A stretch of DNA of 64,000 nt from NCBI GenBank assembly GCA_951406725.2, contig OX597838.1:3968001-4032000 (forward strand), read 5' to 3'. Source of the DNA: Octopus vulgaris (lineage: Eukaryota). Shown piece by piece: positions 5,486-46,004 of this stretch. Numbering within the stretch: the first letter of the stretch is position 1; each line of letters opens with the position of its first letter. The translations under genes and the position numbers were made by a program. The notes beneath the pieces were generated by a model. It worked only from the letters and a program-made list of their open reading frames with translations, ran no database searches and was not told where the DNA came from.

Positions 5486-5492
<7 letters not shown>

Positions 5493-5558
5493 TGGCCCAA
5501 TGGATAAGGCACTGGCTTCCTAAGCCGGGGTTTGCGGGTTCCAGTCTCGTCGCAGGTA
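5486..5558 (+). pseudogene. tRNA-Arg(CCT)-like pseudogene
   Basis: TGGCCCAATGGATAAGG (D arm), CTGGCTTCCTAAGCCGG (anticodon CCT at 5519-5521) and GCGGGTTCCAGTCTCGT (mutated T arm). The 5' acceptor strand is replaced by (CA)n. Confidence 0.75.
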
Positions 5559-42344: not shown

Positions 42345-43290
42345 ATGTTTCTTTATTGGCCACACAGGGCTGAACACAAAGGGGACAAAATACAAAGTAG
42401 AGCTTTTCTTTTTGGGAGGAAAAAAAGGGGGTAGCATTTCGATCAAAAGGTGTCGTGGAGAGCAAAAATGGGCTGATCAATAGGGATCGTGCATCACAGA
42501 AATTTCATAATGTAAAATGGGGGAGCAGATTAGGTTTATCCGTGGAAAGAAAAGCCTACGTAAAAGACCACGGTAACCTCGAGCAATAATGTCATGCAAA
42601 AAAACACATTCCAGTAAGTGATTCTCTTTTTCCCTTTCTTTTTCTGGTTCATAGGATTATGCTCAAGATGGCTCCGTCATTCATACGTGCCATCCTTGCA
42701 ACATTCACCCATCTTTCTTTAAAACATTCGCTAGACAAGACTTCCCTCTCTACTCTCACCTCACTGTCCTCTTCTAGTGATACTTGAAGAAGTTGATGAG
42801 AGATTCAGCAGAAAGGAAAGTGTTTGTCTCTTGACCTTTCAGACGCGTTCACCATAAACATTCTTTCGCCATAGCCACAAGTACGATGAAAATGGCTCTT
42901 TCTTCCCGTTTCAAGGAAGGAGGTGCGACGATATTCACGACAGACTTGGCTGATAAGCTGACTCGTCACCACACGCGATAGCAGTCGTTCGACATAGGCC
43001 CACAGGTCGGAAATGGCTGAGACACTGTACGAGTGCGTGTAAAACGGTTATGTCGCTCTGACCGCATCTCGGGCAGGTCGGCCCCGTGTTTCTCGAGCCA
43101 TGCCTGTAGAGCTTATCCCGAACGGGTCGCGCTTCTCGATAGCACTGCCAGGCCAGTGATCTCTGGAAGTTGTCCACAGATCCCGGTCCGAAAGTCATCT
43201 TGAGCAGGCGGGTCAGGTATTCCTCGTCGATGCCCAGGTTCGCCCCGAACTTCGTCGTCGTACCCGCCCTCCACTAATCCTCTATAGAAT
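42345..43290 (-). mobile_element. Tx1/L1-type LINE ORF2 C-terminus and 3' UTR
   Basis: LAWQCYREARPVRDKL..TCPRCGQSDITVLHALVQC (CCHC, zf-RVT-like) followed by AKECLWWTR..F..RW; 3' AATAAAG is followed by TATC-like repeats. Confidence 0.85.
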
Positions 43291-43345: not shown

Positions 43346-44202
43346 TACTACTACAAAAACAATAAAACGACATCGGAAATTACGTCAAGAACAACACGTT
43401 ATGATATTGATGATGATGATAATACGAAGAATGATGACGATCATGATCATGATGACGAAGATGACGACGACGACGACGATAGTGATCCGTCATGTGACCG
43501 TCAGGGTAGAAGGGACAGCCGCACAGGATTGCCTGCCCCGGCGAGGTGTCTTTCAGCATCATTTTTTAGGTTTATTATTACATAAGATAGGCGTATGACC
43601 TCATATTTCATGAGAGGGAGGGACGGAGGAAGAGGGTGAAGAGGAGGAGGTGTGTTTCAGCACGGTGGTAGTTTTGGGTTGATGACGATGTTACTGGTGG
43701 TGGTGGCAGTGATGTTGATGGTAGCGGTGGCGGCGGAGTGGCAGCGGCGTTGTTGTTATTGTTGTTGTAGTTGGTGGTGGTGGTGGTGGTGGTGGTGGTG
43801 GTTGTGGTGGTGGTGGTGGTGGTGGTGGTGGTGGTGGTGGCAGTGGTTGTGGCAGCGGAGGCGGTGATGGTGTATTTAAAGGTGATATCCTTGTTTTAAA
43901 TTTAAAAAAAAACAGAAATAATAATTTTGAGAAAGAAAAAAAACGAAACAAAGTCGAACCAAATAAACAAAACAAGCATTTATAATCGTCATCATAAAAA
44001 AAGGGGGCGGGCAGCAGGGTAAATGAAAGAGAGAGAAAAAAACACAAGGAAAAGAAGAAACAAAAGGGAGAAAGAATAGGGCTCAGGAAACTTCTAAAGG
44101 GAATAAATGATCAGAGTTGATGAGTTGTTTTGGATAGGTCTATACATTTAGAACAAGAATTTGACTTTGTACACGCACATACGCACCTCTGTGTGTGCGT
44201 GT

Positions 44203-44235
<33 letters not shown>

Positions 44236-44246
44236 TGTGTGTCTAC

Positions 44247-44338
44247 CAATGTAAGAGTATTGACATCCTTAGTTACGTTTAGTTGACGACTATAATTCTC
44301 CTTTACGGTTTAACATTGTAACTGGCTGTTTATATTAA
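44247..44338. repeat. Left 92-bp direct repeat flanking the hammerhead array
   Basis: Ungapped match to 45825-45916; my hand count gives 75/92 identical. Confidence 0.85.
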
Positions 44339-44408
44339 CCTTTGTATACGCATTAGCAATCTGCTAAATCATTCATAAATTTTTATGGCAAAAACATATA
44401 TTCTGTTT

Positions 44409-45742
44409 GGTGAGGCAGCCCGGAATCTGCCGAACGAGCTGGCCTTACTGACGATGGCTACGGAAATAGCTGAAACTGACCGGCCAGTCTTAGGAATTCT
44501 CGGTTCGGTGTTCTCTGGTAGGTGAGGTAGCCCGGAATCTGCTGAATGAGCTGGCCTTACCGACGATGGCTACGGAAATAGCTGAAACTGACCGGCCAGT
44601 CTAAGGAATTCTCGGTTCGGTGTTCTCTGGTAGGTGAGGTAGCCCGGAATCTGCTGAATGAGCTGGCCTTACCGACGATGGCTACGGAAATAGCTGAAAC
44701 TGACCGGCCAGTCGAAGGAATTCTCGGTTCGGTGTTCTCTGGTAGGTGAGGTAGCCCGGAATCTGCTGAATGAGCTGGCCTTACCGACGATGGCTACGGA
44801 AATAGCTGAAACTGACCGGCCAGTCGAAGGAATTCTCGGTTCGGTGTTCTCTGGTAGGTGAGGTAGCCCGGAATCTGCTGAATGAGCTGGCCTTACCGAC
44901 GATGGCTACGGAAATAGCTGAAACTGACCGGCCAGTCTAAGGAATTCTCGGTTCGGTGTTCTCTGGTAGGTGAGGTAGCCCGGAATCTGCTGAATGAGCT
45001 GGCCTTACTGACGATAGCTACGGAAATAGCTGAAACTGACCGGCCAGTCGAAGGAATTCTCGTTTCGATGTTCTCTGATAGGTGAGGTAGCCCGGAATCT
45101 GCCGAACGAACTGGCCTTACTGAGGATACCTACGGAAATAGCTGAAACTGACCGGCCAGTCTTAGGAATTCTCGGTTCGGTGTTCTCTGATAGGTGAGGT
45201 AACCCGGAATCTGCTGAACGAGCTGGCCTTACCGACGATGGCTACGGAAATAGCTGAAACTGACCGGCCAGTCGAAGGAATTCTCGGTTCGGTGTTCTCT
45301 GGTAGGTGAGGTAGCCCGGAATCTGCTGAATGAGCTGGCCTTACCGACGATGGCTACGGAAATAGCTGAAACTGACCGGCCAGTCTAAGGAATTCTCGGT
45401 TCGGTGTTCTCTGGTAGGTGAGGTAGCCCGGAATCTGCTGAATGAGCTGGCCTTACTGACGATAGCTACGGAAATAGCTGAAACTGACCGGCCAGTCAAA
45501 AGAATTCTCGTTTCGATGTTCTCTGATAGGTGAGGTAGCCCGGAATCTGCCGAACGAACTGGCCTTACTGAGGATACCTACGGAAATAGCTGAAACTGAC
45601 CGGCCAGTCTTAGGAATTCTCGGTTCGGTGTTCTCTGATAGGTGAGGTAACCCGGAATCTGCTGAACGAGCTGGCCTTACCGACGATGGCTACGGAAATA
45701 GCTGAAACTGACCGGCCAGTCGAAGGAATTCTCGGTTCGGTG
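44409..45742 (+). ncRNA. Tandem array of 12 x 112-bp units, each with a type I hammerhead ribozyme fold (retrozyme-like)
   Basis: Unit: CCUUA-C(U/C)GA(C/G)GA-U-(G/A)GCUA cggaaa UAGCU-GAA-ACUG accggc CAGU-C-(U/G)AAGG. Units start every 112 bp from 44409 and the last is truncated to 102 bp; no ORF. Confidence 0.85.
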
Positions 45743-45824
45743 CTCATGACGATTGCAGCCCCAATCAGAAATACATGCTATGTGCTTTATAACAGCATTG
45801 GTGCATTTCAGCTCTTATTTCAGG

Positions 45825-45916
45825 CAATGTAGATGAATTGACACCCTTTGTCACATTTAGTTGACAACTAAAATTCTCCTTTACAGATGAACATTGTTAC
45901 TAGCTCTTTTTATTAA
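45825..45916. repeat. Right 92-bp direct repeat flanking the hammerhead array
   Basis: CAATGTA..TTGACA.CCTT..TTTAGTTGAC.ACTA.AATTCTCCTTTAC..AACATTGT..TATTAA is shared with 44247-44338. Confidence 0.85.
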
Positions 45917-45932
45917 TACACACACACACACA

Positions 45933-46004
<72 letters not shown>

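Follow-up and report, generated by a model that had tools for sequence, protein, structure and literature searches.

The window, a stretch of 64,000 nucleotides of one Octopus vulgaris contig, contains a tandem array of hammerhead ribozyme motifs that lies within a single copy of a dispersed repeat. The initial annotation reported twelve 112-nt units at 44409..45742. All twelve are present, at a spacing of exactly 112 nt in 12/12 cases, and the repeated units extend over 44402-45745 rather than the interval first given. Mapping of the window by blastn against a natural copy of the dispersed family (L015:1423-1775), which served as the reference monomer, gives the order 251-350, 5-179, 67-179 ten times, and 67-351 in reference coordinates, and the 112-nt unit corresponds to positions ~67-179 of a ~351-nt monomer. 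The features of the element and its immediate borders are as follows.

~44200-44241: (TG)n run adjoining the 5' end of the element, from the sequence
44242..45917, + strand: one copy of the ~351-nt family (~1.27 monomers) with 11 extra copies of the inner 112 nt, from blastn against the natural monomer
44242..44340, + strand: tail of the monomer before, lacking its 5' part (partial tandem, reference 251-350), and at the same time the 5' member of a pair of ~92-bp terminal direct repeats
44341..44401, + strand: AT-rich start of the monomer, native, upstream of unit 1 and aligned with dispersed copies
44402..45745, + strand: twelve units of 112 nt, each a hammerhead with its extended stem I, from unit layout and blastn mapping, with a junction found only in the array
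44443..44494, + strand: type I hammerhead of unit 1, with a CUGA core, a stem I that has a U.U mismatch and a predicted cut after 44489; found again at each 112-nt step, with helices supported by covariation in the family
44555..44606, + strand: hammerhead of unit 2, with a U4C core, a perfect stem I and a predicted cut after 44601, from the sequence; identical in units 5 and 9
44857..45742, + strand: 448-bp higher-order duplication, units 5-8 and 9-12, with 2 differences in 438 compared bases
45746..45917, + strand: native 3' part of the monomer, up to the family's fixed 3' end, which lies ~196 nt past the last predicted cut site
45918..45999, no strand: (CA)n microsatellite adjoining the 3' end of the element, from the sequence

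The array and its flanks at 44242-44401 and 45746-45917 form one element, and these flanks match those of dispersed copies. The second copy of the terminal direct repeat (45825-45916) is 81.5% identical to the 5' copy over 92 bp, and in the reference copy the distance from the cut site to the family 3' end is 198 nt. As first described, the array is richer in GC than its surroundings (53% vs 43% and 36% in the 1-kb flanks) and the unit has no ORF: no open frame is found when the 112 nt are read as a ring, and a coding role of the array was rejected on this ground. Successive units meet at 44513|44514 and every 112 nt thereafter, a duplication junction that is distinct from the cut site and has ~1 nt of microhomology, and the extent of the unit coincides almost exactly with the hammerhead and its extended stem I. 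When the array is compared with itself, a shift of 448 gives 97.2% identity and other shifts give 94-95%; units 2, 5 and 9 are identical to one another, as are units 3 and 4, and units 7 and 11. An assembly artefact was considered and rejected, with the 112 junction present in 4/4 sequencing runs examined and several unit variants present in one of them (X1).

In the genome searched (2.8 Gb, 227 contigs), the 112 junction was found only in the array. As an exact pattern it gave 9 matches, all in the array, and as a DNA query it gave 11 matches, again all in the array (1 of 1 candidate scored). A DNA search with one unit returned 52 matches, 12 of them in the array, and the matches elsewhere end by query position 104 of 112 (best 40 of 147 candidates scored); a further genome DNA search scored the best 40 of 111. 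Only top candidates are scored in these searches, and a second junction that has diverged could escape them. A junction of the 112 type is likewise present at 0/54 dispersed loci of the family. The proposal that the 112-nt unit is itself a mobile element is therefore not sustained, and the dispersed family is that of the ~351-nt monomer.

No host gene was recognised in the window and its 3' neighbour, where 0/240 open frames (148 + 92) passed the Pfam cut-off, in a scan that left out 6 near-duplicate array frames, 31 frames of L141 and 3/27 frames of L142, and that misses short exons. Elsewhere in the window, 5486-5558 (+) has a weak Rfam tRNA match (31 bits vs a cut-off of 29) and is probably the head of a tRNA-derived SINE, and 42938-43273 (-), 1 kb from the element, has a weak zf-RVT match (E 0.001, below the cut-off) and is possibly a LINE remnant.

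The ~351-nt family and its candidate helper

The parent family is a non-coding monomer of ~351 nt found, among the matches listed, at 54 other non-redundant loci on many contigs (73 loci before repeats of the same place were dropped). Monomer mapping gives variable 5' ends and a fixed 3' end; the terminal 3' end is present at 33/54 loci, and at 28 of these 33 a microsatellite comes next. Head-to-tail monomer junctions occur at 23/54 loci, as partial tandems only, and adjacent inverted segments are found at 15/54. Dispersed copies carry 1-1.5 units, read through the cut site, and have no attached ORF. Their mean divergence over the unit is 21%, and the parent family is old. A pattern of 17 family positions gave 25 exact matches in the genome vs 1 in the control, and we estimate the copy number of the family at around the low hundreds.

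Taken together, the fixed 3' end, the variable 5' ends, the partial tandems, the inversions and the microsatellite targets are marks of Penelope-type insertion. Partial tandems, inverted 5'-truncated copies and a microsatellite bias are described for Penelope-like elements (PLEs) in PMC8557442, and for a purified PLE enzyme, PMC11167929 reports a start of reverse transcription inside its RNA and action on both target strands. Copies that pass the cut site and are longer than one unit would fit a circular or multimeric template, as proposed in PMC4209133. From these insertion marks, the suggestion made at the outset of spread by a helper reverse transcriptase can be carried over to the parent family, as something that we infer. 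A sister subfamily, ~70% identical (L159-L188; e.g. C3:161909790 and C15:59597130), has the same insertion marks, with CUUAA/UUAAG in stem I, GGCAA/UUGCC in stem II and a shorter palindromic helix III.

The genome also has a young family whose 781-aa ORFs combine RT and GIY-YIG with a cysteine-rich linker and whose ~385-bp terminal repeats end in (TA)n. From its cysteine-rich linker, the 781-aa ORF family is called Neptune-type (following PMC8557442). The terminal repeats of this Neptune-type family hold a minimal hammerhead-like motif with the covariant U3-A8 core UUGAUAA (L103:5058-5110 and the corresponding place in other GIY-YIG loci, L079-L114; 29/42 loci among L073-L114), a 5-bp helix II, a palindromic ACAUGU helix III and a weak stem I; a U3-A8 hammerhead variant is known from Schistosoma PLEs, as described in PMC4209133. 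Upstream of the 781-aa ORF, L103:1-1744 contains another long stretch that looks coding and has a ~138-bp repeat within it, which suggests that the L103 Neptune element may be two-ORF or frameshifted. In addition, C3-G8 minimal hammerhead motifs lie near divergent PLE fragments at L140:1951 and L190:3902.

No likeness at the DNA level between the retrozyme family and PLEs was found in 42 PLE loci (the young Neptune family included) or in 4 further regions. The idea of a PLE attached to the family was also tried and set aside: tblastn placed the 781-aa protein near 5 loci (L024, L143, L146, L165 and L182), at four of them 0.2-4 kb away, and these were taken as separate insertions. At L189:2173-3930 (C3, about 85463170-85464930), a copy of the sister subfamily stands head-to-head with a 5'-truncated Neptune-type element, with a gap within about 25 nt. 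The truncated element is 52-59% identical to the 781-aa ORF, and its 3' region has a U3-A8 motif with an ACCGGU helix III. We regard this locus as a candidate chimeric insertion, in which a single nick may have served for the copying of both parts; only this one example was found, and the two may be neighbours by chance.

The hammerhead motif and its probable decay in the array

Every unit has the layout claimed for it, namely CCUUA, C(U/C)GANGA, an extra U, stem II with a CGGAAA loop, GAA, ACUG..CAGU and GUC, and the predicted cut sites would fall, as first placed, after 44489, 44601 and then every 112 nt up to 45721. The 3' strand of stem I had been given as UAAGG or a variant, which holds in its general form, and the perfect UAAGG is confined to 3/12 units (2, 5 and 9). 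A check proposed with the initial annotation, a search with Rfam Hammerhead_1 (RF00163), left the array unmatched both at the gathering score and at E<=10. The six matches to this model in the genome are all at other loci (L153-L158) and represent other hammerhead families, three of them with a long insert in helix II. Rfam matches to SNORD65 and mir-297, with E about 1-4, were dismissed as chance. The extra U after A9, together with the 5-bp helices, likely explains why the Rfam model misses the array.

Several comparisons bear on whether the motif is genuine. A relaxed type I descriptor was passed by 13/20,000 dinucleotide shuffles of the unit, and a pattern blind to stem II gave 40 matches in the genome vs 0 in the reversed control and exposed the sister subfamily. 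Helix pairing was scored in an alignment of 45 sequences, made up of 4 array units, 26 of the 38 available main-family copies and 15 sister copies chosen by a core-fixing pattern, with indel copies, duplicates, two damaged sister copies and one chance match left out; 89.3% of its 810 cells are paired, vs 24-43% in slid controls. Compensatory swaps between the subfamilies are found in stem I (C-G/U-A and U-A/A-U) and in stem II (U-A/A-U), each of them a single event, and doubly changed pairs are in no excess (6 vs 6.4 in shuffles). N7 is the sole freely varying column of the core. The core CUGANGA ... GAAA ... UH is the family majority and is kept in 14/30 dispersed copies and in 5/12 array units. 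Core divergence among dispersed copies is 7% vs 11% outside the unit, a difference not counted as selection because these copies were retrieved by likeness. Helix III is palindromic in both subfamilies, which also share a conserved internal loop in stem I and the CGGAAA loop. At the level of sequence, these are genuine type I hammerhead motifs, with three helices around a core and open at stem I. In a nearest-neighbour model without a calibrating active control, the hammerhead fold is less stable than the best fold by 7-21 kcal/mol in array units and by 5-20 kcal/mol in dispersed copies; folding probabilities were given no weight in judging activity.

None of the 12 array units carries the whole predicted ribozyme of the family. 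The canonical CUGA core is kept in 5/12 units (1, 6, 7, 10 and 11), each with a mismatch in stem I, and the other seven (2-5, 8, 9 and 12) have the U4C core change, including all three units with a perfect stem I. Consecutive CUGA cores occur in units 6-7 and 10-11, again with helix mismatches in each unit. The U4C change is found in 0/30 dispersed copies; according to PMC3088659, it strongly lowers hammerhead activity, yet is tolerated in a viroid. Two further changes are common to all 12 units, U at 11.1 and C at a stem III position; dispersed copies have C in 25/30 and U in 27/30, respectively, and the shared stem III change is a mismatch. Half of the inferred changes (8/16) fall within the 52 hammerhead nt of the 112, which gives p=0.71 for depletion, at a power that is low with 16 changes. 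Because every unit departs from the family ribozyme, the cut every 112 nt that had been predicted is unlikely.

Alternative structures and signals can also be read in the units. The U4C change (units 2-5, 8, 9 and 12) converts a G.U to a G-C pair in an alternative 5' hairpin, GGUGAGG/CCUUACC, and in the predicted best fold this hairpin sequesters the stem I strand. Each unit from 44410-44521 on has GTGAGG ... CTGAC ... TTCTCTG(G/A)TAG, a set that resembles a donor, a branch point and an acceptor. A + strand transcript of the array could be spliced in 112-nt steps, and the set may equally be chance, because any tandem repeat with AG|GT yields one.

If the + strand is transcribed, cutting would be weak and uneven, and would be expected chiefly after 44601, 44937 and 45385, where neighbouring units may form double hammerheads. 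In the uncalibrated folding model, the double-hammerhead fold beats two single folds by 1-9 kcal/mol in 11/11 adjacent pairs, although the best fold is more stable than it by 10-32 kcal/mol. Units 1, 6 and 10, whose cores are intact, could in this way act on units 2, 5 and 9, whose substrate strands are intact, and cuts at these three sites are predicted to give 336- and 448-nt fragments.

Six of the 19 listed sequencing runs contain part of the array region, none of them listed as RNA on record, and in the 4 runs examined (X3 and X4 left out) the 112 junction occurs in contigs of three guessed-RNA runs from three studies (X1, X2 and X5) and of one large run under another organism label, in which U4 is intact in all listed depth. 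X2 has a single 142-nt contig (112 + 30), a closed 112-nt loop, and such contigs show neither strand, ends nor circularity. No cover of the 3' flank was found past 45739 in X1, X2 and X5; the hint is weak at best, as the unit can outnumber the flank by up to 12x and the comparison was made without a silent-stretch control. The array may be expressed, and the presence of its junction in these runs, one of them under a second organism label, shows that it is real and probably old.

Origin of the array

Minisatellites can arise from part of a transposable element, and the array is likely a decaying minisatellite, an offshoot of a known kind of mobile element. We put the probability at about three in four that the array is the inner 112 nt of one dispersed ~351-nt copy, present twelve times, with insertion likely by a PLE enzyme, followed likely by DNA duplication and unequal exchange. 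The steps could run as follows. Multimeric transcripts of the parent would self-cleave at GUC, a host ligase would circularise the monomers, and a Neptune-type RT/GIY-YIG protein would nick a TA/CA microsatellite and copy the circle from an internal start. After insertion, the inner 112 nt would have been duplicated as DNA and multiplied by unequal exchange. The 112-nt unit would not be mobilised in its own right, because it lacks the 3' part where copying would start.

Turnover of the array at the DNA level is indicated by units 5-8 and 9-12, which are a 448-bp duplicate. The units differ from one another by a mean of 5% and a maximum of 10%, less than the 18.5% (92 bp) between the terminal repeats, which under the model were identical at insertion, and amplification after insertion is therefore favoured. 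The deepest unit split, at 10%, is about half of the divergence of the 92-bp terminal repeats, and the first unit duplication possibly dates to the time of insertion. Support for monophyly of the array is weak (72/78).

In an alternative with an earlier origin, the 112 junction would have been born at the RNA or cDNA stage, through a template jump across the base of the long stem I or through copying of a deleted mini-circle, so that a few units were inserted and DNA turnover came later. This would suit the oldest units being 10% apart, the near-exact fit of the unit to the hammerhead with its extended stem I, the ~1 nt of junction microhomology, and the frequency of rearranged insertions in the family (15/54 loci inverted). 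We consider it unlikely, however, as template switching would have to happen twice, to enter and to leave the short template, with the native flanks kept in register; such an internal repeat is seen at 0/54 other loci, and two changes common to all units are rare in dispersed copies. Considerably less probable is the original proposal, in which the 112-nt unit would be a miniature retrozyme in its own right, able to circularise and dispersed by a helper RT. Tandem type I hammerheads in each unit, the junction in X1 and X5 and the closed 142-nt contig in X2 fit with it, and short retrozyme units are known in vertebrates from a 2026 preprint (10.64898/2026.07.22.740005). A closed contig is, however, equally expected from a tandem DNA array or from a read-through transcript, the array is a single locus, and its units have neither the family's fixed 3' end nor, in any case, the full family ribozyme. 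As for the unusually small size claimed for the repeat, the 112 nt stand, but the consensus lengths of 51-972 bp reported in the same preprint offer a precedent.

We hold it just as improbable that the host has retained the array for the small circular RNAs it would yield or for the cutting of RNA. The junction is common to the second organism label and is present in guessed-RNA contigs, and each of the three intact substrate strands adjoins a unit with an intact core. Two of these three complementing pairs, however, go back to one duplicated event, the ribozyme is not depleted of changes, U4C has spread to 7/12 units, and no host gene is found among the 240 Pfam-scanned open frames. The post-insertion DNA duplication that we prefer also leaves room for a more speculative outcome, which we think doubtful: through the internal duplication, a retrozyme copy that was dead may have become a ribozyme minisatellite that is transcribed and whose incomplete units complement their neighbours, releasing circles of 336, 448 and some of 112 nt. 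If true, few natural hammerhead circles in animals would be smaller than those of the array.

Relation to known hammerhead repeats

The parent family carries more weight than the array, which alone would be a curiosity. The insertion marks, a start ~198 nt past the cut site, the junction with a Neptune-type element and an intact ORF in the candidate helper together make the link between retrozymes and PLEs testable in vitro. The array, for its part, shows one route to short hammerhead tandem repeats, and pipelines that call any hammerhead tandem repeat an active retrozyme will count dead minisatellites.

No description of the family had been known to the initial annotation, and we found none in the hammerhead, retrozyme, satellite and octopus/cephalopod literature; Repbase, Dfam and some supplements, which may list the family, lie outside the scope of that search. 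Hammerhead matches have already been recorded in a squid genome (PMC6962438), and the word 'ribozyme' is absent from the main text of an octopus repeat annotation (PMC13282606). The parent appears to be a new family of a known kind, the animal non-LTR retrozymes, and has given rise to a hammerhead minisatellite at one locus. The kinship with metazoan non-LTR retrozymes first suggested is borne out for the ~351-nt family, which is non-coding, has a type I hammerhead and occurs in head-to-tail copies. Animal non-LTR retrozymes as described by Cervera & de la Pena (2020, PMC7229834) are likewise non-coding with a type I hammerhead per unit, and their reported range of 150-450 bp includes the 351-nt monomer. 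Both also co-occur with PLEs, and that Penelope-like elements mobilise animal retrozymes has the standing of a proposal in the literature (PMC7229834; 10.64898/2026.07.22.740005). Local amplification of retrozymes by unequal crossover is put forward in the preprint of Li, Clavereau & Pollet (2026; 10.64898/2026.07.22.740005). In contrast to such retrozymes, the parent here consists of old, dispersed copies of 1-1.5 units and not of long arrays, and the long array is made of an inner fragment, with 53% GC and at one locus, and its cleavage and circles are putative.

The hammerhead repeats of Schistosoma are named Sm-alpha. Together with newt satellite 2 and the axolotl 330/350-bp repeats (PMC7229834), they resemble the array in being tandem type I hammerheads able to work as dimers. 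Those repeats are whole monomers in high copy number, with cleavage and circles demonstrated, whereas the array has 12 degenerate units of a fragment.

The minimal hammerheads in the pseudo-LTRs of PLEs (Cervera & de la Pena 2014, PMC4209133) share with the family an unpaired nucleotide between A9 and G10.1, a G10.1-C11.1 pair, a palindromic helix III for a double hammerhead, and insertions with partial tandems and inversions. Unlike the pseudo-LTR motifs described there, the family has a stable helix III (4-5 bp), an extended stem I and no attached RT-endonuclease ORF; with its stable helix III and extended stem I, the family motif could therefore fold as a monomer. The Neptune-type elements of this genome differ from the family in carrying another minimal motif, that with the U3-A8 core. 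Minisatellites derived from transposable elements, which are discussed in 10.64898/2026.07.22.740005, match the array in its single locus, variant units and higher-order duplication, and the array stands apart from them in that the amplified piece is a complete ribozyme module.
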